Source of the DNA: Deltaproteobacteria bacterium RBG_16_64_85
GTDB taxonomy: Bacteria > Desulfobacterota > Deferrimicrobia > Deferrimicrobiales > Deferrimicrobiaceae
Assembly (NCBI GenBank): GCA_001798885.1
Contig: MGQW01000008.1
Location: 1,146-65,145, forward strand
Length of the DNA: 64,000 nucleotides
Direction: 5' to 3'
In this document: piece by piece, positions 5,147 to 57,361 of the stretch
Numbering within the stretch: position 1 is the first letter of the stretch
How the letters are laid out: every line of letters starts with the position of its first letter
Notes under the pieces: generated by a model
What the model was told of the DNA's origin: nothing
Database searches by the model: none
The model's input: only the letters and a program-made list of their open reading frames with translations
Position numbers and translations under genes: made by a program

Positions 5147-5386
5147 TCATCCCTGGGAGACCGGCGGGCGGGGCGTGGTCTCTTCCTTCGCGGCCTCCTC
5201 CTTCGGGGCTTCCTCCTTCATGGCCTCGTCAATGCTCTTCTTGACCTCCTCCGAGGCCTTCTTGAACTCGGCAAGCCCCTTGCCCAGACTCTTGGCCAGG
5301 TCCGGCAGCCGCTTCGGCCCGAAAAAGATCAGGACCACGACCAAGATGAGGAGCATCTCCTGGAAGCCGATCCCGAACATTTGCAC
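5147..5386 (-). CDS. Twin-arginine translocase TatA/TatB-family subunit (second copy)
   Basis: 79 aa, MQMFGIGFQEMLLILVVVLIFFGPKRLP; sits directly upstream of tatC. Confidence 0.8.
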   Translation of the reverse strand: MQMFGIGFQEMLLILVVVLIFFGPKRLPDLAKSLGKGLAEFKKASEEVKKSIDEAMKEEAPKEEAAKEETTPRPPVSQG

Positions 5387-5469
5387 CCCCGTGACGATCT
5401 TCTTTTACTACTATACCCCAGGGTTCCGTTCCAAATCCATGTTATCCAATAGGATAAAACCCGCTATCC

Positions 5470-5481
5470 GATCGGATGGAA
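5470..5481. promoter_or_regulatory. Perfect 12-bp palindrome ATCCGATCGGAT in a divergent promoter region
   Basis: Located between the minus-strand tat operon and the plus-strand ATPase-fusion operon; candidate operator. Confidence 0.2.
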
Positions 5482-5608
5482 GGAACGGATCGCGAACCTT
5501 CGCCCGAATGCGCAGACCGCCGTTTTACACGGATTTTTAAAAAGGCACGGCATTTGATAGGAAGATCCATTGAGGTCTTATCCACCACCGATCGCAGGGA
5601 GGAACCGC

Positions 5609-8600
5609 GTGTTCCTGGGTGTCGACATCGGATCGATCAGCGTGAAATTCGCCCTTTTCGTGCCGCCGGGAGGCGGGCCGGTGAGCGAGGAGGTTCTCGG
5701 GACGTTCCAGAATCCGGAGCCGATCGGGATTCCGGGAAGGGGGCAGGCGTATCTACTGTCCTACGATCGGCTCCTCGGGGATCCGAACCGGAAAGTTCCG
5801 GAGCGATTGCGGTACTGGCTGGGCACACTGGGAGCCTCCCGCGTGCCGTCCTTGGCCGTTACGGGGAAGGCCAGCAAGCACCTCTCGGAGAAACTTTCCG
5901 CCCATTACGAAAACGATTTTCGCTGCCTGGTGAAGGCGGTGACCGCGATCTACCCGGATGTCCGCACGATCTTCGAGATGGGAGGGGAAAACTCCAAGGT
6001 GATTCGCCTCGAACCCGGGCGCCCGGGCGAGGCGGTCCGGATCAAGGACTACGACACCAACGGGGACTGCGCCGCCGGCACGGGCTCCTTTATCGACCAG
6101 CAGGCCAACCGGATGCAGTTTGCCGTGGAGGAGATCGGGGAGATGGTCGTACGGGCCGCGAATTCGGCCAGGATCGCCGGGCGCTGTTCCGTGTTCGCCA
6201 AGTCCGACATGATCCATGCCCAGCAGAAGGGGTTTTCCCCCGAGGAAATCCTGAAAGGTCTGTGCGAGGCGGTGGCCCGCAACTTCAAGAGCAACATCAA
6301 TAAGGGGAAAGACCCGGGACCGAAGGTGGCGCTGGCCGGCGGATTGTTCGCAAACCAGGGGGTCGTCCGGGCGGTCTGCGACGCATTCGGGTTCGCCTCC
6401 GGGGACGTCGTCCTTTCCCCCGGCTTCGCGCACCTGAGCGCCATCGGGGCTGCGCTGGCGGCGGCGGAGATCCCGGCGTCGGAGAGGAAAGTCGTTATTG
6501 CGGAGATCTCCGATTCGGACGTCGGGAAGGAGTTCCATAAATCCTTCCCGGCCTGGCCGAGGCTGTCCACGGAAAACGTCGTCTTCCTCCGGGACCGGGT
6601 GGCTCCTCCTCCCCGGATCGAGGGGAAGCCGGAAGTCTTCCTCGGAATCGACATCGGTTCGGTGAGCACCAATTTCGTCCTCACCGACTGGGAGGGGAAT
6701 CTCCTGAAGGAGATTTACGTCGGCACGCAGGGGCGCCCCGTCCAGGTGGTCACCGACGGCCTGCGGGACCTGTGGGAGGAGTTTGGCGACACGGTGACGA
6801 TCCGAGGGGTGGGGACCACCGGTTCGGGCCGGGAGCTCATCGGGGAGCTGGTGGGAGCGGACACGGTCCAGGACGAGATCACGGCCCACAAGACCGGCTC
6901 CACCTTCATCAGCCGCCGCTTCTTCGACCAGCCGGTCGACACCATCTTCGAGATCGGGGGGCAGGATTCCAAGTTCATCGGCCTCGAAAACGGGGTCGTG
7001 GTGGACTTCGCGATGAACGATGCCTGCGCGGCGGGGACGGGATCGTTCCTCGAGGAGCAGGCGGAGCGGCTGGGCATCCAGATCAAGGGAGAGTTCGCCA
7101 CGCTTGCGCTCTCCTCCAAGGCGCCGATCCGGATGGGCGAGCGGTGCACGGTGTTCATGGAGCAGGACCTGAACAACTTCCTCCACCTGGGCGCGGAAAA
7201 GATCGACCTCGTGGCGGGGCTGGCTTATTCCGTGGTCCTCAACTACCTCAACCGGGTGGTCCGCGGGCGCAGGATCGGCGACACCATCTACTTCCAGGGA
7301 GGAACGGCCTACAACGACGCCGTGGCGGCCGCCTTCACGCACGTCCTGGGGAAGAAGATCATCGTCCCGCCGCACAACGGGGTCATCGGCGCCATCGGCA
7401 TGGCGCTGCTCGCGCGAGACAAGGTGAAAGCGCTCGGACGGTCCACACGGTTCCGCGGGTTCGACCTCCAGCAGGTGGACTACCGGCGCCGGGAGTTCGT
7501 CTGCAAGGGGTGCAGCAACGTCTGCGACATGCAGGAGATCCAGGTCGACGGGACGCGCACCTACTGGGGCGACAAGTGCTCCGAGAAGTACCGGAAGGCC
7601 GCCCGCACCGAGACGCGGCCGGTGATCGACGACCTGCCGGCGCGCCGGGCCGAGTACCTCGACCGATTGGCCGAGGGAGCCGAGAGCGGGCCGCGGGGGA
7701 TCGCGGGATATCCCCGCGCCATGTACTACTTCGAGCGGTTCCCGTTCTGGAAGGGGTTCCTCTCGGCCGTCGGGTTCGGGGTGAAGGTCAGCCCGCGGAC
7801 CGACAAGACGATCGCCCGCGAGGGGCTCGAGCTTACGGTCGCGGAGCCGTGCTACCCGATCCAGGTCGCCCACGGACACGTGGCGGCGCTGCTTCGGGAC
7901 GGGATCGACTTCCTGTTCGTCCCCAACGTCATCAACTCGGAGACGGAGCACATGCACACCGAATCCCACTTCTGCCCCTGGGGGCAGACGCTGCCGTTCG
8001 TGCTGGGCGCCGTTCCCAAGTGGGAGAAGGAGCTGCGCCAGAAGCTGCTGTCTCCCACGGTGCGCTTCCGGGACGGCGAGAAGTACGTCGTCGAGGACCT
8101 GTTCGAGTGCTTCGGTTCCCTGGGCGTCTCCCGCCGCGAGATCCGGGAAGGGATACGCGCCGGAACCCGCGAGCAGCGGAAGTTCCACGACTTCCTGATG
8201 AGCGCGGGGGCCGTCGCGGTATCCGAAGTGGAGAAGGCGGGGGCCAACGCCATCGTCCTGCTCGGCCGCCCGTACAACCTGTACGACCGCGACATCAACC
8301 TGAACATCCCCTCCAAGCTGCGTGACCAGTACGGGGCCAACGTCCTCCCGATCGATTTCCTTCCCGTGGACGACATCGACATCCGGGACATCCACGACAA
8401 CATGTTCTGGAACTACGGGAGGAAGATCATCGCCGCGGCGAGGTGGTGCCGGCCCCGCCCGAAATTCCACTTGATCTACATCACGAACTTCAAGTGCGGG
8501 CCGGATTCGTTCATCCGTCATTTCATCACCCGCGCCTCGGAGTCGCCGTATCTCTCGCTGCAGTTCGACGGGCACGGCAACGACGCGGGATACATGACCC

Positions 8601-8656
8601 GGTGCGAGGCCTATCTCGACAGCAAGGGGGTATTGCGCTGGTGGGCGGAAACGTGA
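5609..8656 (+). CDS. Tandem BadF/BadG/BcrA/BcrD(HgdC)-type ASKHA ATPase domains fused to a Cys-rich 2-hydroxyacyl-CoA dehydratase/DCCP-like (DUF2229-type) domain
   Basis: Two FLGxDIGSxS ATPase phosphate-1 motifs (about aa 14 and aa 355 of the ORF) plus a downstream Cys-rich region (CKGCSNVCD...C); GTG at 5609 sits 5 nt after GGGAGGA and is preferred over the TTG at 5570. Confidence 0.65.
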   Translation: MFLGVDIGSISVKFALFVPPGGGPVSEEVLGTFQNPEPIGIPGRGQAYLLSYDRLLGDPNRKVPERLRYWLGTLGASRVPSLAVTGKASKHLSEKLSAHYENDFRCLVKAVTAIYPDVRTIFEMGGENSKVIRLEPGRPGEAVRIKDYDTNGDCAAGTGSFIDQQANRMQFAVEEIGEMVVRAANSARIAGRCSVFAKSDMIHAQQKGFSPEEILKGLCEAVARNFKSNINKGKDPGPKVALAGGLFANQGVVRAVCDAFGFASGDVVLSPGFAHLSAIGAALAAAEIPASERKVVIAEISDSDVGKEFHKSFPAWPRLSTENVVFLRDRVAPPPRIEGKPEVFLGIDIGSVSTNFVLTDWEGNLLKEIYVGTQGRPVQVVTDGLRDLWEEFGDTVTIRGVGTTGSGRELIGELVGADTVQDEITAHKTGSTFISRRFFDQPVDTIFEIGGQDSKFIGLENGVVVDFAMNDACAAGTGSFLEEQAERLGIQIKGEFATLALSSKAPIRMGERCTVFMEQDLNNFLHLGAEKIDLVAGLAYSVVLNYLNRVVRGRRIGDTIYFQGGTAYNDAVAAAFTHVLGKKIIVPPHNGVIGAIGMALLARDKVKALGRSTRFRGFDLQQVDYRRREFVCKGCSNVCDMQEIQVDGTRTYWGDKCSEKYRKAARTETRPVIDDLPARRAEYLDRLAEGAESGPRGIAGYPRAMYYFERFPFWKGFLSAVGFGVKVSPRTDKTIAREGLELTVAEPCYPIQVAHGHVAALLRDGIDFLFVPNVINSETEHMHTESHFCPWGQTLPFVLGAVPKWEKELRQKLLSPTVRFRDGEKYVVEDLFECFGSLGVSRREIREGIRAGTREQRKFHDFLMSAGAVAVSEVEKAGANAIVLLGRPYNLYDRDINLNIPSKLRDQYGANVLPIDFLPVDDIDIRDIHDNMFWNYGRKIIAAARWCRPRPKFHLIYITNFKCGPDSFIRHFITRASESPYLSLQFDGHGNDAGYMTRCEAYLDSKGVLRWWAET

Positions 8657-9951
8657 GCGGCTCTTCCCTCGAGGGACGAACGGTATTTTTTCCAACGATG
8701 ACCGATGCGGGATCCAGGGTCATCGCGGCGGCGTTCCGGTCGGTCGGAATCGATGCCCGGACCATGCCGCCTTCCGACGAAGAGACGCTGGTCCTGGGGG
8801 GGCGCCACTCCTCCGGCGAGGAATGCCTCCCGCTGAAAGTGACCCTCGGGGATGCCCTGAAGCTGCTGGTACACAGTAAGATTCCCCCCGAGAGGATGGC
8901 CATTTTTATGCCGACTTCCGACGGTCCCTGCCGCTTCGGGCAGTACGGCTCGTTCATGAAAGTGGTTTTCCGTGAGATGGGGTACGGCGACGTGCTCCTG
9001 CTGTCGCCCACCTGCGAGGACGGGTACTCCGGCGTGGGAAAGCATGCGGACGAGCTGCTGCGCACCGCATGGCGCGCGCTGGTGGCGGGCGACCTGCTCC
9101 AGAAGCTTTTGCTCCGGGTACGGCCGTACGAAAAGGTGAAGGGGGCCGCGGACGCGGCGTTCGAGGAGGCGATCGACCTGGTCTGCCGGGCGGTCGAGGT
9201 CCGGGGGGAGACCCACAAGCAAAGACTCGAGCGGATCGTGAAGAGCCTGCGACAGGGGAGGGCCCTCCTGAACCAGGTCCCTGCCGATTTCTCGGTCCTC
9301 CGGCCGCTCATCGGCGTGGTCGGGGAGATCTTCTGCCGGCTGAACACGTTCAGCAACGACGATGCGCTGCGGAAGGTGGAGGAGGCCGGCGGGGAGTGCT
9401 GGATCTCCGACGTGAGCGAATGGGTGTGGGCGACCAACGCCGAGCAGATCCGCATGCTCAAGCGCTTCCGCAAGCATCTCACAGTGGAAATGTTCGGCGC
9501 CTGGCTGAAATGGCACTTCCAGCGGAAGGACGAGCATGCCCTCCTGGACGTGTTCCAGGGGGATTTCCGGGGCTACGAGGAGCCGCACGACATCCGGGTC
9601 ATCTACGACCTTGCGCGCCCCTACCTGCCGCCGGAGGGAGCCTTGGGCGAGATGATGCTGTCCGTCGGGAAGACGGTCTACCTGCACCGGAAAGGAGCCG
9701 ACGGAATCCTGGACATCAACCCCTTTTCCTGCATGAATGGAATCGTATCGGAGGCGGTCTACCCCCGCGTCTCCCGCGATTGCGACGGGCTGCCGGTCCG
9801 GGTACTCTATTTCGACGGGACGCGGGTGGACCGAAGGTACGAGCTGGAGATCTTCATGGACCTGGTGCGCGCCTATTCGGCGAGGAAAAAGACGCTGCGC
9901 CGCCTCCCGGAAGGCGTGGGGGTTGCTGTCCCGCGCGCGGATGCCGGTTGA
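8653..9951 (+). CDS. DUF2229/HgdAB-like partner subunit of the upstream ATPase fusion (putative Fe-S radical enzyme component)
   Basis: GTG overlaps the upstream stop (GTGA); conserved Cys residues (CLPLK, CRFGQYG, PTCEDGY); family assignment made by pattern only. Confidence 0.55.
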   Translation: MSGSSLEGRTVFFPTMTDAGSRVIAAAFRSVGIDARTMPPSDEETLVLGGRHSSGEECLPLKVTLGDALKLLVHSKIPPERMAIFMPTSDGPCRFGQYGSFMKVVFREMGYGDVLLLSPTCEDGYSGVGKHADELLRTAWRALVAGDLLQKLLLRVRPYEKVKGAADAAFEEAIDLVCRAVEVRGETHKQRLERIVKSLRQGRALLNQVPADFSVLRPLIGVVGEIFCRLNTFSNDDALRKVEEAGGECWISDVSEWVWATNAEQIRMLKRFRKHLTVEMFGAWLKWHFQRKDEHALLDVFQGDFRGYEEPHDIRVIYDLARPYLPPEGALGEMMLSVGKTVYLHRKGADGILDINPFSCMNGIVSEAVYPRVSRDCDGLPVRVLYFDGTRVDRRYELEIFMDLVRAYSARKKTLRRLPEGVGVAVPRADAG

Positions 9952-10685
9952 ACATCGCCATCCTTTCGGACCTTCATTCCAACGGCGACGCACTGGATGC
10001 CGTGGCGCGGGAGCTCGCCGCGCGACGCGTTGACCGCGTCTACCATCTGGGGGACCTGGTCGGGTACAACGCCGAGCCCGAAAAATGCGTGCAGTGGGCC
10101 ATCGGGCACACCGCCGGAGGCATCCTGGGCAACCATGACGCCGTCGCCTGCGGGAAGGCGGACGGGGAGTTCTTCAACGCGCCGGCGCTGATTGCGGCGC
10201 GTTGGTCGGCGGAGCATCTCTCCGCCCGGTCCCGGGAATATCTGAAATCCCTCCCCGATCGGCTGGTCGTGGAGAAGGAGCTCCTGATGGTGCACGGGGC
10301 TCCCTCCGACCCCGACCGCTACCTCTTCACGCTGGACGACGCGGTGGAAGAGCTGGACGCCTTGACGGAGGACCCGAGCGTGAAGGTCGTGTTTTTCGGC
10401 CACACCCACGTCCCCGCGGCGGTCATCCGCCGGCGGGACGGAAGCACCGTCTCCGTTCCTACCGGCGAATACCGTCTGAAGGAAGGGGAGACCGCCCTGC
10501 TCAACCCCGGCAGCGTCGGCCAGCCCCGCGACCGGAACCCGGAGTCTTCCTTCCTCCTCTTCGACACCCGGATCCGCGCAGCCTCCTGGGTCCGAACGCC
10601 GTACGACATTCCGGGGTGCCAGCGGAAGGTGCTGGACGCGACCCTGCCCCGCTTCTTCGCCACGCGGCTCACGGAAGGGACGTGA
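9948..10685 (+). CDS. Calcineurin-like metallophosphoesterase (YfcE/MJ0936-type phosphodiesterase)
   Basis: TTG start overlapping the upstream stop (TTGA); motifs LSDLHSN, HLGDLVGY, GNHD, MVHGAP, GHTHVP. Confidence 0.75.
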   Translation: MNIAILSDLHSNGDALDAVARELAARRVDRVYHLGDLVGYNAEPEKCVQWAIGHTAGGILGNHDAVACGKADGEFFNAPALIAARWSAEHLSARSREYLKSLPDRLVVEKELLMVHGAPSDPDRYLFTLDDAVEELDALTEDPSVKVVFFGHTHVPAAVIRRRDGSTVSVPTGEYRLKEGETALLNPGSVGQPRDRNPESSFLLFDTRIRAASWVRTPYDIPGCQRKVLDATLPRFFATRLTEGT

Positions 10686-11101
10686 AACCGCGGGGCTATC
10701 GCCTCCTGCCCCACACCGCGGACATCCGCCTGGAGGTCCGCGGACAGGACCTGGCCGGGCTTTTCGCGACGAGCGTCACATCCCTCTTCTCCCTCCTCAC
10801 CGACCGCCGCCGCGTCCGCGCAGCGGAAACGAGGACCCTCGAGGTCTCCGGGAGAGACCTCGAGGACCGGCTTTTCCTGCTGCTTCGCGAGGCGCTGCTG
10901 CTCTTTACCGTGGACCGTTTTCTCGTCCGGAGCGCACGTGGTAAGATGAACAGATCGGGAGTGCGGGTGGAGGTTCGGGGCGAGGCGTTCGACGCCTCCC
11001 GGCACCACGCATTTCGCGAGATCAAGGCGGTGACCGCCCACGGGATGGTCGTGGAAAGGATCCCGGGCGGGTTTGCCGCACGGTACGTGATCGACGTCTA
11101 G
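10682..11101 (+). CDS. Archease (RtcB activator / RNA-ligase specificity factor)
   Basis: About 140 aa with the N-terminal HTADIRLEV motif; GTG overlaps the upstream stop (GTGA); directly upstream of rtcB. Confidence 0.8.
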   Translation: MKPRGYRLLPHTADIRLEVRGQDLAGLFATSVTSLFSLLTDRRRVRAAETRTLEVSGRDLEDRLFLLLREALLLFTVDRFLVRSARGKMNRSGVRVEVRGEAFDASRHHAFREIKAVTAHGMVVERIPGGFAARYVIDV

Positions 11102-11137
11102 CCCCTTCGGCGGCCTTGAGAAAGAGGAGGGCCGGCC

Positions 11138-12585
11138 ATGCAATACCACGGCGTCTCTTTGAATAAATTGTCCGACATCATGTGGGAAATTCCTCAGGCC
11201 GGCGGGATGCGGGTCCCGGGCCTGATCTTCGCCTCCGAGGCGATGATGGGCGACATCCTGAAAGACGAGGCCGTGCGGCAGGTGATGAACGTGGCCTACC
11301 TGCGGGGATCCTCCGGTACAGCATCGGGATGCCCGACATCCACTGGGGATACGGCTTCCCCATCGGGGGAGTGGCGGCGATGGACCTCGACGAGGGGGTA
11401 ATCTCCCCCGGTGGCGTGGGGTACGACATCAACTGCGGCGTGCGCCTCCTGCGGTCCGGTCTCACCGTCGAGGCGCTGCGTCCGAGACTCCCGGAGCTGT
11501 TGGGCGCCCTGCATCACGGGGTTCCCTCGGGGGTCGGCTCCACGGGCTTCGTCCGCCTTTCGGGACCCGACGTGGAGACGGTGTTGAGCGAAGGATCCCG
11601 CTGGGCGTCGTCGGCGGGGTTCGGGACGGACGAGGACGTCGCGTTCACCGAGAGCGGGGGAAAGTACCCCGGCGCCGACCCGGACGCCGTCTCGACGGTG
11701 GCGAAGAAGCGAGGCAGGGAACAGCTGGGGACTCTCGGATCGGGGAACCACTTCCTCGAAGTGGACGAAGTCATGGAGATCCACGACGACGAGGCGGCGG
11801 CGGCTTACGGGCTCTTCATCGGACAGGCGGTGGTCCTCATCCACTCCGGATCGCGGGGGCTCGGCTACCAGGTGTGCGACGACTACCTGGTGACCATGGC
11901 GGAGTACATGCGGAGGAACCGCATCGAACTGCCGGACCGCCAGCTGGCATGTGCACACATACGCTCCCCCGAGGGGGAACGGTACCTCTCCGCCCTGGCG
12001 GCGGCGGCGAACTTCGCCTTCGCCAACCGGCAGCTCCTGGCGCACCAGGCCAGGGAGACGTTCCTCAAGGTGCTTAAGATAGGGCCGCGCGACCTCGGGA
12101 TGCGGCAGGTGTACGACGTCGGCCACAACAACGCCAAGTTCGAGGAGTACGAGGTCGACGGGCGAAAGAAGAAGGTGCTGGTCCACCGGAAGGGTGCGAC
12201 CCGGGCGTTTCCGCCGGGGCACCCCGAGATCCCGGGGGAGTACCGGAAGGTCGGCCAGCCGGTGTTCATCCCCGGCGAGATGGGCAATGCTTCCTATGTC
12301 CTTGCGGGGGCCCCGGGAGCGATGCGGCTGTCGTTCGGCTCCACCTGCCACGGGGCGGGCCGCCGGATGAGCAGGACCCAGGCCAAGGCGAGCGTCCGCG
12401 GGAAATCGATCGTCCAGGAGATGGAAAGGCGGGGGGTGCTGGTCGCCTGCGCCTCCATGAAGACCCTCGCCGAGGAGATCCCCGAGGCGTACAAGGACGT
12501 GTCCGCCGTCGTGGACGTCGTGCACGAGGCGGGGATCGCGCGGAAGGTGGCCAGGCTCAAGCCCGTTGCGGTCGTGAAGGGCTGA
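11138..12585 (+). CDS. rtcB: RNA-splicing ligase RtcB, interrupted by a 1-nt frameshift in a G4 run near 11304-11308 (sequencing error or pseudogene)
   Basis: ORF 11138..11401 encodes the RtcB N-terminus up to NVAYLRG; ORF 11182..12585 continues with ILRYSIGMPDIHWGYGFPIGGVAA...GSGNHFLEV...; adding one G restores a single RtcB-length ORF of about 482 aa. Confidence 0.8.
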
Positions 12586-12598
12586 CGGGGGGAAGAGG

Positions 12599-13348
12599 TT
12601 GCAGCAGCGACCCTGGTTCGAGACGATCTTCGACGAACGGTACCCGGAGCTGTTCGGGCCGATCGAGGGGAACGCCGAGGAGGAGGTCGAGGAAATCCTC
12701 GGTTTCCTCCGTCTCCCCGCCGGGGCCGCCGTGGAGGATCTGGGGTGCGGGCGCGGGAGGCACGCCATCCCGCTTGCCCGCAGGGGATACAGGGTCGCCG
12801 GAGTGGACATCTCGGAGAACATGCTCCGCCTGGCGCGCAGCCGCGCCGAGCGGGAAGGGGTCCAGGTCGAGTGGGTGAAGGAGGACATGCGAACGTTCTG
12901 CCGGCAGGATGCGTTCGACCTTGCCCTAAGCCTGTTCACGTCCTTCGGGTATTTCAGCGACGCGGAGAACCAGACGGTCCTGGACAACATCGGAAAGAGC
13001 CTCAAGCAGGGAGGGGCGCTCCTCCTCGATCTGCGCAACGCCGGCAAGGGGCTCTTGCGCCTGGAGGACCTGGACAAGACCATGAAGGTACCCTCGGGGA
13101 GCCTCCGGATGTCGGTGCGGTTCGACCGGCGCACGATGCGCGCCAAGGCGGAGCACACGCTCACTCGGCCCGACGGAATCCGGATCTCCTCCGCTTTCGA
13201 CGTGCGGGTCTACTCGATGGAGGAACTCTGGAAGATGCTCCGGAGGGCGGGGATGGAGGTGAGGGATTTCTACGGTTCCCTCTCGGGCGCACCGTTCACG
13301 GACGAATCCACCCGGTTGGTGACCCTTGCCGTGCGGTTGGGATCCTAG
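12599..13348 (+). CDS. Class I SAM-dependent methyltransferase
   Basis: VEDLGCGRGRHAIPLARRGYRVAGVDIS (motif I) and LKQGGALLLD; TTG start 11 nt after the rtcB stop. Confidence 0.8.
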   Translation: MQQRPWFETIFDERYPELFGPIEGNAEEEVEEILGFLRLPAGAAVEDLGCGRGRHAIPLARRGYRVAGVDISENMLRLARSRAEREGVQVEWVKEDMRTFCRQDAFDLALSLFTSFGYFSDAENQTVLDNIGKSLKQGGALLLDLRNAGKGLLRLEDLDKTMKVPSGSLRMSVRFDRRTMRAKAEHTLTRPDGIRISSAFDVRVYSMEELWKMLRRAGMEVRDFYGSLSGAPFTDESTRLVTLAVRLGS

Positions 13349-13351
13349 GGT

Positions 13352-15373
13352 CTAGAGCAGGTCGTCGGACGGCTGCCGGCGAGGGAAGCGCTGCTTCCCT
13401 GCGGGACCCGCCTCGGGGATGGTCCCCAGCCGGAAGGGCAGGGAGATCCCCTCGGTTGCTCCCGGGGGAAGAGCCTTTCCGGTGGCTGGGTCGAAGCGGG
13501 CGAAGGTGACCCCCGGCGGAACCGGGAAGTCCCGTTCGGGGTACTGCGTCAGCGCCCGGCCCATGAACTGGATCCAGATCGGCAGCGCCACCACGGCGGC
13601 CGACTGGCGGTCGCCCAGCGGTTTCGGCGTGTCGAAGCCGATCCAGACTCCCGCCAGAAGGTCAGGGGAGAACCCGATGAACCACGCGTCGGTGTTTTCG
13701 TTGGTGGTCCCCGTTTTTCCCGCAAGGTACTTTCCGAGCCCGCGCGCCGCCGTCCCCGTTCCGCTCCGGATCACCTCCTGCATCAGCCGGACGGTCAGGT
13801 AGGCGGTCTCCGGGGGGATCGCGCGCTTCGTCTGGGGCTCGGTGCTCTCCAGGATCCTTCCCGAACCGTCCCGGACTTCCCGGATGAAGTAGGGCGTGGG
13901 GCGTACCCCTCCGTTGGCGAAGGCGGCGTAGGCCGCGCACATCTCCAGCGGTGTGATCCCCGAGGAGCCGAGCGCGATGGAGAGGTTCCGCTCGATCGGC
14001 GATTCGATCCCCAGCGCCCTGGCCGTCTGGATCGCCGTGTCGACGCCGATCTCGTTGAGGAGCCGGACGGTGGCCAGGTTGCGGGACTTGGCCAGCGCCT
14101 CCAGCATGGGGATGGGGCCGAGGAACGTGCCGTCGTAGTTCTTGGGCTTCCACAGCTCGTCCTCGTTCCGATCGAACTCGATGGGGGAGTCGTCCACCGT
14201 CGAGACGACGGTCTTTCCTTTATCCAGTGCAGCGGTATAGATGATCGGCTTGAAGGCAGACCCCGGCTGTCTCCTTGCCTGGATCGCCCGGTTGAACTGG
14301 GACTCCGCGAAGTCCACCCCGCCGACCATCGCGAGAACCCCGCCGGTGTGCGGGTCGATCGCCAGGATGGCCCCCTGCAGTCCCTTGTACTTGTTCCTCT
14401 CTTCCGTCTTGCGGACGCCCTCGATCAGCGCGTTGTGGGCCAATTCCTGGAGGGGACCGTCGATCGACGAGTAGATCTGCATCTCGCTCTTGTAGAGGGC
14501 ATCCGAGCCGTACTTCTCCTGGATGTAGGCCCGGATGTATTCCAGGAAATACGCTGCCTTGGAACGGAAGCTGGAGGGCGGGGCCAGCGTGATCCTGGCC
14601 TGGTAGGCCCGGTCCGCCTCCGGGGAGGCAAGGAATCCCACCTCCACCATCCTGCGGAGAACGTATCGCTGCCTCGCCTTTGCCTGGTCGAGATGGTTCC
14701 TCGGGGAATGGCGGGTAGGCGCCTGGGTGAGCCCCGCGAGCAGCGCCCCCTCCGCGACGTTCAGGGCATTGACCCCCTTCCCGAAATAGGCTCGCGAGGC
14801 GGCCTCCACCCCGTAGGCACCATCCCCAAGGTAGATCTGGTTCAGGTAGAGGAAGAGGATTTCCTCTTTGGTCAGTTTCTTCTCGATGCGATACGCGAGG
14901 ATGATCTCCTTGAGCTTCCTCCGGATGCTCTTCTCCGGCGTGAGAAAGAGCGACTTGACCGTCTGCTGGGTGATCGTGCTTGCCCCCTGGGCGAACCCGC
15001 CCGACAGGAGGTCCTTCAGCACCGCCCGGGCGATGGCGATGTAATCCACCCCCTTATGCTTGAAGAAGTTGGCATCTTCGGCGGCAAGGAAGGCCTTCAC
15101 GACGTGTTTCGGGATCGCCTGGTAGGGGACGACCGTCCTCTTCTCGAGGTAAATCTCCCCGACAATTCGGTTATTCCGGTCGTAGATCTTGGAGGAAACA
15201 CTCGGTCGGTAAGCTGCGGCGGATTCGATCGAGGGGAAGTCGCCGAATTGCGCCAACAGGGCCAGTGCCGCCGCCCCCCCCAGGAGGAAGCAGAGACAGA
15301 GGACGAAGCCCAGAAGAAACAGTTTTTTCCAGGGGAACCCGGCCGGTTCCTCGAGCGAGCTGCGGCGTTCCAA
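13352..15373 (-). CDS. mrcA: Class A penicillin-binding protein (PBP1A-type transglycosylase/transpeptidase)
   Basis: 673 aa; N-terminal TM segment, GT51 motifs EDANFFKHKGVD and GASTITQQ, transpeptidase SAFKP motif. Confidence 0.85.
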   Translation of the reverse strand: MERRSSLEEPAGFPWKKLFLLGFVLCLCFLLGGAAALALLAQFGDFPSIESAAAYRPSVSSKIYDRNNRIVGEIYLEKRTVVPYQAIPKHVVKAFLAAEDANFFKHKGVDYIAIARAVLKDLLSGGFAQGASTITQQTVKSLFLTPEKSIRRKLKEIILAYRIEKKLTKEEILFLYLNQIYLGDGAYGVEAASRAYFGKGVNALNVAEGALLAGLTQAPTRHSPRNHLDQAKARQRYVLRRMVEVGFLASPEADRAYQARITLAPPSSFRSKAAYFLEYIRAYIQEKYGSDALYKSEMQIYSSIDGPLQELAHNALIEGVRKTEERNKYKGLQGAILAIDPHTGGVLAMVGGVDFAESQFNRAIQARRQPGSAFKPIIYTAALDKGKTVVSTVDDSPIEFDRNEDELWKPKNYDGTFLGPIPMLEALAKSRNLATVRLLNEIGVDTAIQTARALGIESPIERNLSIALGSSGITPLEMCAAYAAFANGGVRPTPYFIREVRDGSGRILESTEPQTKRAIPPETAYLTVRLMQEVIRSGTGTAARGLGKYLAGKTGTTNENTDAWFIGFSPDLLAGVWIGFDTPKPLGDRQSAAVVALPIWIQFMGRALTQYPERDFPVPPGVTFARFDPATGKALPPGATEGISLPFRLGTIPEAGPAGKQRFPRRQPSDDLL

Positions 15374-16936: not shown

Positions 16937-17722
16937 TTGTTGTACAATTGGCTCGTGCCGACCACGGGGACGAAGAAGAAGATAGCCGACCTGGGAGCGG
17001 TCGCGTCGGGCCTGGCCCACGAGATCCGCAACCCGTTGAACTCCCTCTACATAAACGGCCAGCTCCTCGTAGAGATGCTTTCGGACCTCCCCGACAGCGA
17101 CAAGGCGCGCAAGGAAGAGCTTCTCTCGATGGCCCAGTCCAACCTGAAAGTTACCCAACGGCTGAAGGATCTTCTTACCGATTTCCTCAGGTTCGCCCGC
17201 CCCCCTTCCATGGAACTGATCCTAGCGGACCTGAACCGGGTCGTCGCCGAGACCGTCCGCTTCCTGGAGCTCGACTTTTCCCGCCGCGGAATCGAACTGA
17301 TCACGAAGCTTCACCAGGCGCCCCTTCCCCTGCTGGCCGACGAGAAACAGCTCAAGCAGGCGCTCCTGAACCTCCTGCTCAACGCCGAGGAGGCGATGGA
17401 CAAGAATTGCAAGCGGATCCGCGTGGTGACGGGGCTTTCGGGGGGCCGGCCCTTCGTGCGGGTGCAGGACAACGGGCGCGGGATCCCCCGGGCGGAGCGC
17501 AGTCAGATTTACCGGCTCTTCTTCACCACGAGGAAAAACGGCAGCGGGCTGGGGCTTCCCATCGTCCGGCAGATCGTCCGTGATCATGGCGGGAAGATCT
17601 CCATCCGCAGCCGCGAGGGGCGCGGGACGACGGCCACCATCCTCCTTCCCTCCGAAGCTCAGTTCAAGACGATGCTTTCGGGAAGATCGAAGAAGGGACT
17701 GCTTCCGGAGAAGGTCCGATGA
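16937..17722 (+). CDS. Soluble histidine kinase lacking a sensor domain (HisKA + HATPase_c only)
   Basis: H-box LAHEIRNPLNS within about 30 aa of the N-terminus; N-box LLLNAEEAM; G-boxes DNGRGIP and GSGLGLPIV; TTG start, no in-frame ATG upstream. Confidence 0.7.
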   Translation: MLYNWLVPTTGTKKKIADLGAVASGLAHEIRNPLNSLYINGQLLVEMLSDLPDSDKARKEELLSMAQSNLKVTQRLKDLLTDFLRFARPPSMELILADLNRVVAETVRFLELDFSRRGIELITKLHQAPLPLLADEKQLKQALLNLLLNAEEAMDKNCKRIRVVTGLSGGRPFVRVQDNGRGIPRAERSQIYRLFFTTRKNGSGLGLPIVRQIVRDHGGKISIRSREGRGTTATILLPSEAQFKTMLSGRSKKGLLPEKVR

Positions 17723-19083
17723 GGGGGAAGCCCCGCGTGATCGTCATCGACGACGACCCCGACAGCCTGGGAAGCGTCGCCGCCGCGCTGCGCCGGGACG
17801 GGTACGAAGTTCACCCGTTCTCGGATCCCCGGGAAGGGCTTTCGTACCTCTCCTCCGAGGGGGCGGACGTCGTCCTCACCGACCTGAAGATGCCGGGCCT
17901 GAGCGGGATGGAGGTGATCGGCCGGGTCGTCGCGGAGCACGCGGGGGTGTCGGTGGTGGTGCTCACCGCCTTCGGAACCGTTTACAACGCGGTGGAAGCG
18001 ATGCGCGCGGGCGCCTCGGACTTCCTCGAGAAGCCGGTGGGGATCCCGCAGCTGCGCGCCGCGGTGTTCAAGGCGGTGAAGGATCGGGAAAAGAACCGGG
18101 AGATCGAACAGCTGCGGGAGGAAATGGGGCAGCGGTACGGGCCGGAGGGGATCATCGCATTCTCGCGGGCGATGGAGGAGGTCATCCGGAAGATCCGGCT
18201 CGTCGCACCGACCCGGATGAACGTCCTCATCCAGGGAGAGAGCGGAACGGGGAAGGAGCTCGTGGCCCGGGCCATCCACGGCTTGAGCCCCAGGCGAAAC
18301 AAGCCGTTCCTCCCGCTGAACTGCGCCGCCATCCCCGAGAGCCTGCTGGAATCGGAGCTGTTCGGCCACGAGAAGGGGGCTTTTACCGGTGCCGTTGCCA
18401 CTCGCCAGGGGAAGATGGAGGCCGCGGAGGGGGGAACCCTTTTTCTCGACGAGGTCGGAGACATGGCCCAGCCGCTGCAGGCCAAGCTTTTGCGGGCGAT
18501 CGAACAGAAGGAGATTTCACGGGTCGGCGACTCGCAGGTGATCAAGGTCGACGTCAGGATCCTGGCCGCATCCAACCAGGATCTCAAGGAGCGGGTTGCG
18601 CAGAAGGCCTTCCGGGAAGACCTTTTCTACCGTCTTAACGTCTTCCGTATTATCGTGCCTCCTTTGCGGGACCGCAGGGACGACATCGCGCGGCTCGCCG
18701 ACCATTTCCTGCAGGAGATCGGACAGGAAAACAAGGCAGCGCCGAAGCGCCTCTCCGCCGGAACGCTCAAGGCGCTCCTCGCCTGCCGCTGGCCGGGGAA
18801 TGTGCGCGAGCTGAGAAACGCGATGGAGGTGGCCGCCCTCGTCGCCAGGGGAGAGGCGATCGAACCGGAGGACCTTCCGCCCGGAATCGTCGAAGGGAGC
18901 ATTCCTCCCTCGGCAGACGGGCCGATCCCGCTCCCCGCCATCAGGACCCTCGAGGAGATCGAGCGCGACGCCATCCGGGCAGCCCTGAAGGAAACGAAGG
19001 GGAACAAAAAGGAGACGGCGAAGATCCTGGGGATCGGCATTGCCACTCTTCACCGCAAGGTCAAGGAATACGGCATCTCTTGA
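17719..19083 (+). CDS. Sigma-54-dependent response regulator (NtrC family enhancer-binding protein: REC-AAA+-HTH)
   Basis: REC domain (VIVIDDDPD...DLKMPGLSG); sigma-54 interaction motifs GESGTGKE and GAFTGA; C-terminal Fis-type HTH; ATG overlaps the histidine kinase stop. Confidence 0.9.
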   Translation: MRGKPRVIVIDDDPDSLGSVAAALRRDGYEVHPFSDPREGLSYLSSEGADVVLTDLKMPGLSGMEVIGRVVAEHAGVSVVVLTAFGTVYNAVEAMRAGASDFLEKPVGIPQLRAAVFKAVKDREKNREIEQLREEMGQRYGPEGIIAFSRAMEEVIRKIRLVAPTRMNVLIQGESGTGKELVARAIHGLSPRRNKPFLPLNCAAIPESLLESELFGHEKGAFTGAVATRQGKMEAAEGGTLFLDEVGDMAQPLQAKLLRAIEQKEISRVGDSQVIKVDVRILAASNQDLKERVAQKAFREDLFYRLNVFRIIVPPLRDRRDDIARLADHFLQEIGQENKAAPKRLSAGTLKALLACRWPGNVRELRNAMEVAALVARGEAIEPEDLPPGIVEGSIPPSADGPIPLPAIRTLEEIERDAIRAALKETKGNKKETAKILGIGIATLHRKVKEYGIS

Positions 19084-19258: not shown

Positions 19259-19273
19259 TGGCACGGAACTTGT
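19259..19273 (+). promoter_or_regulatory. Sigma-54 (RpoN)-type promoter, TGGCACggaacTTGT
   Basis: Matches the -24 GG / -12 element spacing (TGGCAC-N5-TTGC) at 9 of 10 core positions; lies directly downstream of the NtrC-type activator gene and about 27 nt upstream of the preferred GTG start of the CheY-like gene. Confidence 0.45.
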
Positions 19274-21675: not shown

Positions 21676-22128
21676 ATGAGGATCGTTCGTTGGATGGACC
21701 CGTTTCGGGAACTGTCAACCATTCAGGAGAGGATGAACCAGCTGTTCGGAGACTTCGTCGGCCGCGCACGCGGCGGACGGGAGGGAGAGCTCGCGGCTGG
21801 TGGCTGGGCGCCGACCGTCGACATCTACGAAACCGATGACGACATCGTCGTCACGGCGGAACTTCCGGGCTTGGAGAAGGACCAGATCGGCGTCGAGTAC
21901 AAGGAAGGGGTCCTGACCCTGCGCGGCGAGCGGAAACTGGTGCGGGAGGTCAAGGAGGAGAGCTGCCACCGCATCGAGCGGTCTTATGGCGCCTTCCACC
22001 GCTCGTTCAAGCTGACAGGCTCCATCGATGAGGAGAAGATCACCGCCAGGATGAAGAACGGCGTCCTGGAGGTCCATCTCCCGAAGAAGGAAGCGGCCAA
22101 GCCGAAGCAGATCCAGGTGGCCGCCTGA
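21676..22128 (+). CDS. Hsp20/alpha-crystallin family small heat-shock protein
   Basis: 150 aa; P-x(14)-GVL-type alpha-crystallin domain (AELPGLEKDQIGVEYKEGVLTLRGER). Confidence 0.9.
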   Translation: MRIVRWMDPFRELSTIQERMNQLFGDFVGRARGGREGELAAGGWAPTVDIYETDDDIVVTAELPGLEKDQIGVEYKEGVLTLRGERKLVREVKEESCHRIERSYGAFHRSFKLTGSIDEEKITARMKNGVLEVHLPKKEAAKPKQIQVAA

Positions 22129-22211
22129 TCGGTTAGGAAACCGCCGCAAACCGGCCGGCCCGGCCGGCCAAGCCGGCTCACATCAAAGACCGAAGCAAAG
22201 GAGGAGAAGCC

Positions 22212-22664
22212 ATGGCCATCGTACGTTGGTGGGATCCCTTGAGGGATTTGTCGGGCATCCAGGACAAAATGAATCAGCTCTTCGAGGATACCTTTTCCCG
22301 GACCCGGGGGCGCGACGAGGCGCTCGCGAAGGGGATGTGGACGCCCGCGGTCGACATTTACGAGACGGAGGACTCCGTCGTCGTCAAAGCGGAGCTTCCC
22401 GGCCTGGAGAAGGACCAGATCGGCGTGGAGGTCAAGGACGGCATCCTGTCCCTGCACGGAGAGCGGAAGTTCGAGAAGGAGGTAAAGGAGGAGAACTATC
22501 ACCGGATCGAGCGGGCCTACGGGTCGTTCCACCGCTCCTTCTCCCTGCCGACTTCGGTGGAGCAGGACAAGATCAGCGCGAAGTTCAAGGACGGGGTGCT
22601 GGAAGTGCAGCTCCCCAAGAAGGCGCAGGCCAAGCCCAAGCAGATCAAAGTCGACGTGAAGTAG
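22212..22664 (+). CDS. Hsp20/alpha-crystallin family small heat-shock protein (paralog)
   Basis: 150 aa, highly similar to the upstream Hsp20 (AELPGLEKDQIGVEVKDGILSLHGER). Confidence 0.9.
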   Translation: MAIVRWWDPLRDLSGIQDKMNQLFEDTFSRTRGRDEALAKGMWTPAVDIYETEDSVVVKAELPGLEKDQIGVEVKDGILSLHGERKFEKEVKEENYHRIERAYGSFHRSFSLPTSVEQDKISAKFKDGVLEVQLPKKAQAKPKQIKVDVK

Positions 22665-22670
22665 GCGGGG

Positions 22671-23669
22671 ATGGATCCGAAAAAAAACTATTACGAGATC
22701 CTCGGGGTGCCGAAAAGCGCCAAGGAGGAGGACATCAAGAAGGCGTTCCGGCGGATGGCCAGGAAGTGCCATCCGGACGTCAACCCGGGGGACAAGTCGG
22801 CCGAAGCCAGGTTCAAGGAGATCAACGAGGCCCATGCGGTCTTAAGCGACAGGAAGAAGCGGGAGGAGTACGACGCCATCCGGAGCGGGGCCTTCTCCGG
22901 GGGATTCCGGCAGGGAGGCCCATCTGGATGGCCGGGCGGTTTCGGCTTCGAGCCTGGCGGACGGGTGTACCACACCGAGACCGTTGACTTCGATGAGATC
23001 CTCGGCGACCTGCTCCGCGGGGGGCGGGGGGGGGTCGCCCAGGGGGGACAGGGGCGCGACGTCCACGCGGAGGTCGCGGTCGAGTTTATGGACATGGCCC
23101 AGGGCATGGTCCGTGAAGTCCGCTATAACCGCCCCCGGACTTGCGCGTCTTGCGGCGGCTCGGGCCGCTCGGGACGCAAGGGATGCCCGCAGTGCTTCGG
23201 CTCGGGAATCACGGAAGGCGAAGAAAGGGTCAAGGTGAAGATCCCGGCCGGCGCGCAGGACGGCTCCAAGATCCGCGTGGCGGGGAAGGGAGAGGAGTCG
23301 GCCGGGACGGGCAAGAGCGGGGATCTCGTGATCACGATCCGGATGATCCCGCACCCGTATTTCCGCCGGGAAGGGAACGACGTCCTCCTCGACGTCCCCA
23401 TCCACTATTCCGAGGCGGTGAAGGGGGCGAAAATCTCGATCCCCACGATCGACGGCCCGGTGATGATGTCGATCCCCCCGGGCTCCTCCAGCGGAAGGAA
23501 GCTCCGTCTCCGGGGAAAAGGGGTCCCCGCGCCGGGCACCACGTCGCGTGGAGACCAATACGTAATTCTGCACGTAGCGGTTCCTGGCGCCCGTTCGGAG
23601 GAGTTCCTCAAGCTCGTGGAAAAGGTCGTTGCGTTCGAGGACCCGAATTTGAGAGGCGATTGGAACTGA
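22671..23669 (+). CDS. DnaJ/CbpA-like J-domain co-chaperone (J domain, Gly-rich linker, partial zinc finger, C-terminal domains)
   Basis: YYEILGV...HPD J-domain motif; only two CxxCxGxG repeats ([16 protein letters not shown]). Confidence 0.8.
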
Positions 23670-23741
23670 TTTGTCTATAATGGAATCAATACCCGCAGGG
23701 CACGCTTCGTATCTCATAGGAGAAAGGGAGAACCCAGAAAG

Positions 23742-24605: not shown

Positions 24606-24633
24606 GGCCGTCCGAGAGGAGAATCCCAAAGCC

Positions 24634-32866: not shown

Positions 32867-32937
32867 TGGGAGGTCGTCTAACGGCAGGACAGGGGCCTTT
32901 GGAGCCTCTAATGAAGGTTCGACCCCTTCCCTCCCAG
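32867..32937 (+). tRNA. tRNA-Gln (anticodon UUG); 3' CCA not encoded
   Basis: Hand-folded cloverleaf: U1-A72 acceptor pair, U8, A14, G18G19, A21, U33, anticodon TTG, TTCGA T-loop, G73 discriminator; acceptor TGGGAGG/CCTCCCA. Confidence 0.65.
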
Positions 32938-52335: not shown

Positions 52336-52339
52336 TCCC

Positions 52340-53314: not shown

Positions 53315-53356
53315 CCGAAAACAGGGAAATCGCAATCCGGAGCCAAGGAGGAAACC

Positions 53357-54796: not shown

Positions 54797-54843
54797 GGCT
54801 ATTATGAATAGCTGCCGATCCCTCCAGGAGGATAGCGACCGGA

Positions 54844-55968: not shown

Positions 55969-55975
55969 GGACCCC

Positions 55976-57346: not shown

Positions 57347-57361
57347 CGCGGCGGAGGAGGT

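Follow-up and report, generated by a model that had tools for sequence, protein, structure and literature searches.

A conserved six-gene row of Deferrimicrobiaceae-like bacteria looks like a mixed operon holding a PlsA/PlsR-Ger-type reductase, an archease–RtcB pair and an NmbA-like methyltransferase

Six genes in a tightly packed row

We analysed a stretch of 64,000 nucleotides (the window) of contig MGQW01000008.1 from Deltaproteobacteria bacterium RBG_16_64_85. Open reading frame calls showed six plus-strand genes filling positions 5609-13348, and every domain assignment made for them in a first-pass annotation of the bare sequence agreed with Pfam and NCBIfam.

g1, 5609-8656, plus strand: 1015 aa; PlsA/Ger-like (Act1-Act2-Red1), with two ATPase (activase) domains of BcrAD/BadFG type, a CxxCxxxC...C linker and a reductase-like DUF2229 domain
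g2, 8653-9951, plus strand: 432 aa; PlsR-like (Red2), the second component, reductase/dehydratase-like and paralogous to DUF2229 of g1
g3, 9948-10685, plus strand: 245 aa; metallophosphoesterase of the calcineurin type (Metallophos_2), with YfcE/MJ0936 as relatives
g4, 10682-11101, plus strand: 139 aa; archease, cofactor of RtcB
g5 (rtcB), 11138-12585, plus strand: archaeal/eukaryal-type RNA 3'-phosphate/5'-OH ligase; frame interrupted, repaired product 482 aa
g6, 12599-13348, plus strand: 249 aa; SAM-dependent class I methyltransferase that groups with NmbA-like natural-product N-methyltransferases

Three junctions are 4-nt overlaps of start and stop codons: GTGA at 8653 (g1/g2), TTGA at 9948 (g2/g3) and GTGA at 10682 (g3/g4). 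The remaining two are short gaps, 36 nt before the ATG of g5 at 11138 and 13 nt before the TTG of g6 at 12599. Relatives repeat the order and the overlaps of the row. The g1/g2 overlap is 4 nt in nearly all of them; that of g3/g4 is 4 nt in the close-clade loci with both genes, and 7 nt and 1 nt in two deep relatives. Every genome with both g3 and g4 has them overlapping, including relatives with 41% g3 identity. No sigma-70-like promoter motif and no intrinsic-terminator motif was found inside the row. The row of overlapping or abutting genes described in the first-pass annotation is real, and the junctions, their conservation and the lack of internal promoter or terminator motifs support its view that co-transcription of the six genes is likely.

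Rough gene calls in the rest of the window indicated that 4-nt overlaps are common and appear to join unrelated genes too, for example:

43732: 4-nt overlap of RecN and GNAT genes, apparently unrelated
46194: 4-nt overlap of HAD hydrolase and RNase E-G genes, apparently unrelated
27354: 4-nt overlap of DUF1844 and HtrA genes, apparently unrelated

Such an overlap thus argues for co-expression, not for common function.

A two-component reductase encoded by g1 and g2

In Pfam, g1 matches BcrAD_BadFG twice (PF01869, 4e-76) and DUF2229 once (PF09989, 2e-51), and its ATPase domain matches HgdC (1hux, E 2e-29). Cysteines 154, 193, 473, 513, 632, 635, 639, 657, 748, 789 and 963 do not vary among 78 homologues. 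The sole Pfam match of g2 is DUF2229, below threshold; hhalign related it to the DUF2229 domain of g1 at 93%. Its fold is that of HAD/BCR/DCCP, with benzoyl-CoA reductases, 2-hydroxyacyl-CoA dehydratases and DCCP among the fold-level PDB relatives. Together, g1 and g2 are collinear end to end with single fused proteins of ~1400 aa: g1 aligns with these over its whole length at 36-45% identity, and g2 corresponds to the C terminus of one of them (P0377).

An HgdC-like activase with cluster-bridging cysteines and a two-component HgdAB-fold module place the pair in the 2-hydroxyacyl-CoA dehydratase/benzoyl-CoA reductase/DCCP superfamily. Moreover, g1 has two BcrAD_BadFG domains followed by DUF2229 (BBD), and a PlsR/Red2-like component is encoded directly downstream, overlapping the g1 stop. 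Enzymes of the PlsA/PlsR-Ger group, glycerolipid ester reductases published in 2021-2022 (PMC12838417, PMC13159169), share this architecture, which replaces the earlier description of g1 and g2 as a redox enzyme of unknown substrate. BBD is reported to be conserved in all alkyl-ether producers (PMC13159169), and Clostridium perfringens plsA-plsR is likewise split into ~1000 aa and ~400 aa, ~4.2 kb in total (PMC12838417). Architecture, fold and conserved cysteines set the assignment; the lipid substrate is predicted from the family, in which PlsA and Ger cannot be told apart by sequence (PMC13274423).

Archease and an interrupted rtcB

The product of g4 matches Archease in Pfam (9e-33) and P. 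horikoshii archease (4n2p, E 2e-16). Archease and rtcB are always both present or both absent in the relatives. The product of g5 has an RtcB domain (Pfam, 9e-166), but the frame from ATG 11138 stops at 11401 and the domain goes on in the frame of the ORF at 11182-12585. The window reads CTGCGGGG where five relatives and a 97%-identical strain read CTGCCGGGG, so that one C is missing at ~11303. In that strain rtcB is intact; in the window the open reading frame is broken by this 1-nt deletion, genuine or an assembly error. The break had escaped the first-pass annotation. The repaired product aligns with RtcB of P. horikoshii (E 1e-174) and retains the metal-binding and guanylylation motifs (DINCG, GSGNHF, HSGSRG and CHGAGR), with archease adjacent.

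Phosphoesterase and methyltransferase

The g3 protein matches Metallophos_2 (1e-24) and, over its full length, an uncharacterised Sphaerobacter phosphoesterase (3rqz, E 8e-36).

For g6, Pfam reports Methyltransf_25 (4e-23) and Methyltransf_11. Its best solved relative is 9ri2, the bacillithiol N-methyltransferase NmbA of Chlorobaculum tepidum, at E 3e-30 and 36.9% identity over 236 aligned positions, followed by daptide and cypemycin N-methyltransferases (PMC12719100). NmbA homologues have been defined by E <= 1e-20, similar length, coverage >80% and identity >25% to CtNmbA (PMC12719100, section 4.1), and g6, with 242 of 249 residues covered, falls within these limits.

A Hen1-like identity, which the end-of-operon methyltransferase had called to mind, was considered and rejected. 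The 249-aa protein comprises a methyltransferase core and cap, with no extra domain and no Hen1 N-terminal Pnkp-activating domain. Its best 60 PDB matches (down to E ~1e-4) include no Hen1 and are all NmbA, natural-product or small-molecule methyltransferases. Placement in an unrelated small-molecule family had been named beforehand as a finding against the RNA-repair proposal, and it is NmbA to which g6 is closest. The g6 enzyme most probably acts on a low-molecular-weight thiol or a metabolite of that kind rather than on RNA. No bacillithiol synthesis (bsh) genes occur among the ~20 other annotated genes of the window, and outlying NmbA homologues may methylate other acceptors according to the NmbA authors (PMC12719100).

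Distribution across loci

We compared 24 informative loci of Deferrimicrobiaceae and relatives, this window included. Absence was judged at the locus, with ~10 kb of flank visible, so copies may lie elsewhere in a genome. All six genes are present at 11 of the 24 loci, g1-g3 only at 7 and g1-g2 only at 1. Three loci have g4-g5 and lack g6 (L019, L035 and L040), while two have the reverse (L004 and L012); g6 is therefore not co-inherited with the ligase. L026 carries g1-g2 alone, as does L082 (g2 60% identical). The adjacency is thus not peculiar to this genome, the row being conserved in a family-level lineage. The flanking PBP1A gene is kept throughout. One subclade has a spacer of 60-375 nt between g2 and g3, which in L021 contains a perfect hairpin. 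Row order holds down to ~54% g1 identity (L035 and L040, both without g6), and g1-g5 are conserved in two deep relatives. Because this order and the g3/g4 overlap persist, there may be selection for expressing g3-g5, at the least, along with g1-g2, a point that counts against wholly unconnected units.

Outside the lineage, g1-g2 stand as a pair of their own in no fewer than 8 phyla. At 52 loci of other phyla, 37 of them with >=3 kb of sequence 3' of g2, g2 comes after g1 in every case where the contig runs on, and g3-g6 gave no match.

Upstream region and candidate promoter

An alignment of the upstream regions of nine relatives contained two conserved islands, and a sigma-54-like motif lies between them and g1:

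5444-5455, no strand assigned: 12-bp palindrome ATCCAATAGGAT
5466-5477, no strand assigned: 12-bp palindrome ATCCGATCGGAT
5544-5556, plus strand: GGCAC-N5-TTG with sigma-54 -24/-12 spacing, 52 nt before the g1 start

The palindromes, 22 nt apart centre to centre, are putative transcription factor sites, possibly for a sigma-54 enhancer-binding protein. In the motif, GGCAC and TTG are conserved and the spacer is otherwise variable in all informative relatives. This promoter-like motif is present with or without RtcB. Its -12 element reads TTGA, the consensus C of TTGC being replaced. The window holds one further match, likewise intergenic, at 19260-19272, 3' of a sigma-54 activator gene (17719-19083), with a same-strand candidate GTG start ~30 nt further on. 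Chance alone would give 1.35 matches to the bare pattern per window, so a sigma-54 assignment is provisional.

Interpretation of the row

We consider the region probably to be a lineage-specific mixed operon of Candidatus Deferrimicrobiaceae-like bacteria, in which at least three functionally separate units are probably read from a single promoter, possibly of the sigma-54 type, ahead of g1. What it seems to hold is a set of known, unrelated functions under that promoter, not a new combined RNA-repair machine. The g1 and g2 proteins would together make up a low-potential iron-sulfur reductase of the BCR/HAD superfamily that is powered by ATP. Its two ASKHA ATPase domains would inject electrons into a Red1/Red2 heterodimer. 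Under anoxia, this heterodimer is predicted from the family to convert the acyl ester at sn-1 of membrane glycerolipids by reduction into an alkyl or alkenyl ether. The g4 and g5 proteins would act as a canonical archease–RtcB pair, joining RNA 2',3'-cyclic-phosphate or 3'-phosphate ends to 5'-OH ends, with g3 translationally coupled to archease and g6 serving as an NmbA-like small-molecule N-methyltransferase. These units would share expression without needing each other.

Alternatively, the row could consist of two modules, the lipid reductase g1-g2 and, docked behind it, a true RNA end-processing and ligation module of g3-g4-g5, with or without g6. The phosphoesterase would then have RNA ends as its target, for instance by trimming them or serving as a 2',3'-cyclic phosphodiesterase. 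YfcE/MJ0936-type enzymes are phosphodiesterases, the g3/g4 overlap extends even to 41% g3 identity, and the subclade with a g2-g3 spacer has none between g3 and g4. Nevertheless, nine genomes that lost g4-g5 still keep g3, and g3 homologues at 31-40% identity (on plasmids and chromids) adjoin Ser/Thr kinase, gltX, ars or aromatic-catabolism genes and never RtcB in the four places inspected. A literature search found no paper linking RtcB, archease and a metallophosphoesterase. We regard a dedicated RNA module as doubtful.

It is unlikely that g1-g2 are a PlsA-like paralogue whose substrate is not a lipid ester but, for instance, an acyl-CoA, an aromatic compound or, as proposed for DCCP, a small inorganic molecule. 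PlsA homologues of unclear role exist (PMC13274423), the fold-level relatives include enzymes of this kind, and our comparison with the validated enzymes was by architecture, not by their sequences. Yet the full BBD plus Red2 arrangement is that of validated Ger and PlsA (PMC13159169, PMC12838417), and the pair is collinear with the ~1400-aa fused proteins. The neighbours, moreover, include no CoA-ligase or aromatic-pathway genes, and an MMPL-type (lipid) transporter lies downstream of g1-g2 at eight Actinomycetota loci.

A bolder proposal, to which we give little credence, is that these anaerobes keep the ether-lipid reductase, phosphoesterase, RtcB–archease and NmbA-like thiol methyltransferase behind one sigma-54-type promoter, across ~50% protein divergence, as one co-regulated response, covering envelope, redox and RNA damage, to a single signal of stress. 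If so, RtcB would have in the phosphoesterase an accessory enzyme that had gone unrecognised.

RtcB ligation requires a 3'-phosphate, which a healing phosphoesterase would take away. The first-pass idea of one composite RNA-repair or stress system, in which the phosphoesterase heals, RtcB–archease seals, g6 marks the junction in the manner of Hen1 and the redox enzyme supports or regulates, is strongly disfavoured and highly improbable: the tight packing, conserved overlaps, single conserved promoter-like element and persistence of all six genes in 11 genomes (and of g1-g5 in two deep relatives) fit it, but g6 is NmbA-like without the Hen1 N-terminal domain, no Pnkp is nearby, g6 is kept in two genomes without RtcB and absent from three with it, g1-g3 persist without RtcB in nine, g1-g2 stand alone at the 52 other-phyla loci and at L026 and L082, and rtcB is frameshifted in this very window. 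Archease–RtcB and g6 are each lost independently while g1-g3 stay, which does not support an integrated heal-seal-methylate pathway, and the other-phyla loci without g3-g6 beside g1-g2 speak against functional integration at large.

Comparison with known systems

The anaerobic plasmalogen synthase PlsA-PlsR of C. perfringens (Q8XL48/Q8XL47) shares with g1-g2 the two-gene layout of ~1000-aa Act1-Act2-Red1 and ~400-aa Red2, the BCR/HAD superfamily and conserved cysteines for Fe-S clusters (PMC12838417, PMC8788747). The likeness is one of architecture, not of measured identity, and plsA and plsR are parted by a short non-coding stretch whereas g1 and g2 overlap by 4 nt. Fused versions of ~1400 aa also exist, such as PlsA of Enterococcus faecalis (Q835P9), in keeping with the collinearity of g1-g2 with fused homologues. 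The glycerol ester reductase Ger ('modified PlsA'), known from Thermotoga maritima (Tmari_0479) and Desulfatibacillum alkenivorans (SHJ90043), has the same BBD with two activation domains and occurs in anaerobic deltaproteobacteria-like lineages (PMC13159169). Validated Ger, however, is a single polypeptide, while the C-terminal reductase part is a separate gene in the window.

NmbA (9RI2) aligns with g6 over the full length, N-terminal and cap segments included. It differs in context, there being no bacillithiol synthesis genes among the window genes examined, and the g6 substrate is a prediction. By contrast, Pnkp-Hen1 resembles the row only in its general plan, whereby genes for a phosphoesterase, a ligase and a methyltransferase lie together. 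None of the six proteins contains a kinase, phosphatase or adenylyltransferase-ligase domain of Pnkp (Pfam, NCBIfam), RtcB has the opposite chemistry (3'-P/5'-OH), and the window methyltransferase is NmbA-like and inherited separately from the ligase.

Pyrococcus horikoshii RtcB, which works with archease (as do Thermus TTHA1785 and human RTCB), is matched over the full length with active-site motifs kept, and archease is encoded directly upstream. The window rtcB, however, is frameshifted and follows predicted lipid genes, in surroundings that are neither of the tRNA-splicing nor of the Rtc kind. Like the rtcBA operon of E. coli and Salmonella with RtcR, the row has its RtcB gene 3' of an apparent sigma-54-type promoter with upstream palindromes. 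It differs in having neither RtcA nor a CARF-domain RtcR and in an RtcB of the archease-dependent type, and its candidate promoter precedes g1 and is conserved in relatives without rtcB.

Organization of the gene row

Six plus-strand genes (g1–g6) lie between a divergent TatA/TatC cluster on one side and a convergent gene for a class A penicillin-binding protein (PBP1A) on the other, in a window with a G+C content of ~65%:

5609-8656, plus: g1, large PlsA-like protein
8653-9951, plus: g2, large PlsR-like protein
9948-10685, plus: g3, metallophosphoesterase
10682-11101, plus: g4, archease
11138-12585, plus: g5, rtcB
12599-13348, plus: g6, SAM-dependent methyltransferase
13352-15373, minus: class A penicillin-binding protein (PBP1A)

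The first-pass annotation had described the junctions correctly, as three 4-nt overlaps (GTGA, TTGA and GTGA) and gaps of 36 nt and 13 nt, and Pfam and NCBIfam confirmed all of its domain calls. Good Shine–Dalgarno sequences are found at g1 and g5; g2 and g3 have none of similar quality, which fits termination–reinitiation. A motif scan detected no sigma-70-like promoter or intrinsic-terminator motif inside the row, which is weak evidence in this organism. In a compact, high-GC genome, start/stop overlaps themselves say little about shared function; by rough gene calls, 4-nt overlaps elsewhere in the window seem to link unrelated genes (RecN/GNAT and HAD hydrolase/RNase E-G). PADLOC returned no defence-system match other than generic methyltransferase-domain similarity.

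Elsewhere, a heat-shock/proteostasis cluster spans 21676-28817 of the window. It opens with a tandem pair of ORFs resembling Hsp20 on sequence inspection and continues with genes for a DnaJ-like protein of 332 aa, ClpB, a DUF1844 protein and a PDZ protease of the HtrA type. Two sets of 2-oxoacid (pyruvate-type) dehydrogenase genes occupy 51259-59308, followed at 60699-62179 by LipB and a radical-SAM (LipA-like) gene:

51259: E1 alpha
54844: E2
55976: E3
57362: second E1 alpha
58334: ORF resembling a second E1 beta (judged from translation)

A single tRNA gene (32867-32937) is the sole Rfam match in the window at the gathering threshold. The TatA-like gene (5150-5383, minus) has a 15-nt in-frame deletion near 5181 relative to a closely related strain (L081), within a short repeated TCTTCCTTCGCGG-like stretch.

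g1 and g2 form a probable split PlsA/PlsR–Ger-type reductase

By Pfam, g1 comprises two BcrAD/BadFG ATPase domains and a DUF2229 domain, and g2 yields only a sub-threshold DUF2229 match. Profile alignment with hhalign identified g2 as a paralogue of the g1 DUF2229 domain (probability 93%, E 2.5e-7), with the cysteine motifs ECxP and C(R/P)(F/W)GQ lining up. When 1.8 billion cluster representatives were searched by phmmer, the strong g1 matches were mostly proteins of ~1400 aa with 36–45% identity across the entire g1, and g2 matched residues 1031–1419 of one such fused homologue (36% identity, E 1e-72). g1 and g2 thus represent the split form of a fused family. Cluster-bridging Cys pairs in both ATPase domains, a CxxCxxxC...C linker and three Cys in the DUF2229 domain (Red1) are invariant or near-invariant in 78 g1 homologues, as are four Cys of g2 in 69 homologues. 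Profile searches with g2 and the DUF2229 domain gave no matches among PDB sequences.

The anaerobic plasmalogen synthase PlsA/PlsR of Clostridium perfringens is encoded by a ~4.2 kb two-gene operon and contains two ATPase (activase) domains, Act1 and Act2, and two reductase components, Red1 and Red2; in enterococci and lactococci, PlsA is fused into one ORF (PMC12838417, PMC9702350, PMC8788747). Ger, a glycerol ester reductase described as a 'modified PlsA', has a BBD core (2x PF01869 + PF09989) that is kept in all alkyl-ether producers (PMC13159169), and sequence does not separate PlsA from Ger (PMC13274423). Two look-ups of the cluster members of 20 fused homologues returned unnamed or MAG proteins only, with no validated PlsA or Ger among them. 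Architecture, fold and cysteines place g1 and g2 in this family. Together they would act as an ATP-driven Fe–S glycerolipid ester reductase making ether lipids or plasmalogens under anoxia, glycerolipid being the predicted substrate.

The row is gained and lost in modules

A scan with one genome per species yielded 80 loci with a g1 homologue; two more (L081 and L082) were added via exact protein look-up. We used tblastn to locate the six proteins and the flanking PBP1A in these loci, called neighbouring genes by six-frame ORF clustering and built a neighbour-joining tree from one protein, g1. Wherever the contig permits, g2 comes after g1. Flanking synteny is shared by a lineage of 28 scanned loci, namely 26 at 71–89% g1 identity and two deep relatives at ~54%; 22 of the 28 are informative, giving 24 loci with L081 and the window. 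All six genes are present in 11 of these 24. Three loci (L019, L035 and L040) have g1–g5 without the methyltransferase, two (L004 and L012) have g1–g3 and the methyltransferase without archease or RtcB, seven pass from g1–g3 directly to PBP1A, and one (L026) retains g1–g2 only. Complete and reduced forms are interleaved in one subclade of the g1 tree, so several independent deletions must have occurred. Archease and RtcB are gained or lost as a unit, and the methyltransferase independently of both.

L082, whose g2 is 60% identical, has g1–g2 only. No match to g3–g6 was found in the fetched flanks of 52 loci from other phyla (51–55% identity; Terriglobia, Thermoleophilia, Gaiellales, Krumholzibacteriota, Nitrospinota, Poribacteria and others), of which 37 extend 3 kb or more past g2, and the neighbours of g1–g2 in these loci are lineage-specific. 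In Actinomycetota (Thermoleophilia and Gaiellales; L030, L036, L043, L058, L062, L066, L067 and L072), an MMPL-family transporter of 871 aa follows g1–g2 on the same strand (at about 14.5–17.2 kb in L062). This sole suggestive neighbour of g1–g2 outside the lineage fits a lipid-related role.

The g1–g2 overlap is 4 nt in nearly all loci. That of g3–g4 is 4 nt in close-clade loci with both genes, and 7 nt and 1 nt in the two deep relatives. A non-coding g2–g3 spacer of 60–375 nt is found in one subclade (L021, L006, L018, L020, L010 and L012); in L021 (14390-14765) this spacer harbours a perfect 13-bp hairpin (GGGGACACTCTTG...CAAGAGTGTCCCC), which may be a terminator or repeat element uncoupling g3–g6 from g1–g2.

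The RNA ligase module and its frameshift

The first-pass annotation overlooked a break in the reading frame of rtcB. Translation opened at ATG 11138 ends at 11401; the RtcB domain is read in the frame of ORF 11182-12585. The cause is a 1-nt deletion at 11295-11310, where the window reads CTGCGGGG and five relatives read CTGCCGGGG. L081 (GCA_040961595.1, 97.4% identical) has an intact rtcB, and the deletion is the sole frame-breaking indel in the 10.4 kb compared; the other window genes checked are intact. It is therefore either a recent, real inactivation or an isolated assembly error. Programmed frameshifting was rejected, as a slippery heptamer is absent and all relatives read straight through. 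With the archease–rtcB pair deleted several times in relatives, the lesion could reflect ongoing decay or an assembly error. The repaired RtcB matches that of Pyrococcus horikoshii (E 1e-174) and retains the metal-binding and guanylylation motifs, and g4 is a typical archease; the two would form a canonical archease–RtcB ligase to which the phosphoesterase is coupled.

g3 is a Metallophos_2 enzyme with full-length similarity to the uncharacterized Sphaerobacter protein 3RQZ (E 8e-36). That it assists RtcB seems unlikely to us: the g3–g4 overlap is conserved universally where both genes exist, but nine genomes keep g3 after loss of g4–g5. Homologues with 31–40% identity to g3 occur on 68 plasmids or chromids. 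The four neighbourhoods inspected contained, respectively, a Ser/Thr kinase–USP protein, gltX, an ars operon and aromatic-catabolism genes; an RtcB or PlsA-like gene occurred in none of the four. On a Hymenobacter plasmid (L085, NZ_CP110140.1, 4066-7388), the g3 homologue lies within an arsenic-resistance operon (ArsR, DUF6428, phosphoesterase, GNAT, ACR3), and homologues of ~31% identity lie within such operons on many Hymenobacter plasmids. The plasmid collection contained no archease homologue, and the literature searched yielded nothing on RtcB, archease and a metallophosphoesterase together.

g6 resembles a bacillithiol N-methyltransferase

g6 (METHYLTRANSFERASE) is a class I enzyme of 249 aa. 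Among solved structures, 9RI2 is its nearest relative by a wide margin; this is NmbA of Chlorobaculum tepidum, for which biochemical work demonstrated N-methylation of bacillithiol at the cysteine nitrogen (PMC12719100). The two proteins align over their full length, N-terminal strand and cap region included (36.9% identity over 236 positions, E 3e-30), and g6 counts as a homologue by the criteria of the NmbA authors (PMC12719100). The next matches are peptide or natural-product N-methyltransferases (cypemycin CypM, YtkW and a daptide methyltransferase); matches in the plasmid collection were uninformative. The 60 best PDB matches include no Hen1 entry. The Hen1-like methyltransferase proposed by the first-pass annotation is thus replaced by a member of a clearly unrelated small-molecule family, an outcome named there as refuting. 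g6 would be an NmbA-like small-molecule N-methyltransferase, probably acting on a thiol.

Conserved elements upstream of g1

When the ~220 nt 5′ of g1 in the window were aligned with those of nine informative relatives, two conserved islands stood out in otherwise variable sequence:

5444-5455 and 5466-5477: island 1, a pair of 12-bp palindromes
5544-5556: island 2, GGCAC-N5-TTG(A/T), TTGA in the window, 70–100 nt downstream of the palindromes

Island 2 shares the spacing of a sigma-54 −24/−12 promoter, although the consensus C at −12 is missing. Both elements are kept in relatives with and without rtcB; retention of the GGCAC motif without RtcB suggests that this sigma-54-like element belongs to g1–g2 and not to the RNA ligase. 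The only other match in the window, GGCAC-N5-TTGT, is intergenic, ~30 nt before a candidate GTG start for the next plus-strand gene, and sits just past a histidine kinase and sigma-54 activator pair:

16937-19083: histidine kinase and sigma-54-dependent response regulator (Response_reg, Sigma54_activat, HTH_8), overlapping by 4 nt
19260-19272, plus: GGCAC-N5-TTGT

Sigma-54 dependence of g1–g2 is thus a prediction, and the putative promoter and operator make it testable.

A mosaic of known functions

The row is best read as a mixed operon holding three kinds of content: the predicted ester reductase, the RNA ligase module and the methyltransferase. Every gene falls in a known family, and the row looks more like inherited synteny in the course of decay than like a new system; the six-gene order did not appear in the literature searched. 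The main value of the analysis is corrective, in that a striking-looking operon resolves into a mosaic of known functions. It also provides a natural series of genomes in which archease–RtcB has been repeatedly deleted and, in the window, is perhaps pseudogenizing. Judged by homology, it places PlsA/PlsR–Ger-type ether-lipid capacity in Deferrimicrobiaceae, a family that, judging from sample names, occurs commonly in metagenomes of groundwater, soil and sediment. Such capacity is relevant when looking for bacterial ether lipids and brGDGT precursors of anaerobic origin.

The heal–seal–methylate analogy drawn in the first-pass annotation fails on three tested defining features. Unlike the Pnkp–Hen1 system, the row has no Pnkp, g6 lacks the Hen1-type N-terminal domain, and the methyltransferase is not inherited together with the ligase. 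In architecture, g1 and g2 match the published descriptions of PlsA/PlsR and of Ger, and they stand to their ~1400-aa homologues as PlsA and PlsR stand to fused PlsA.
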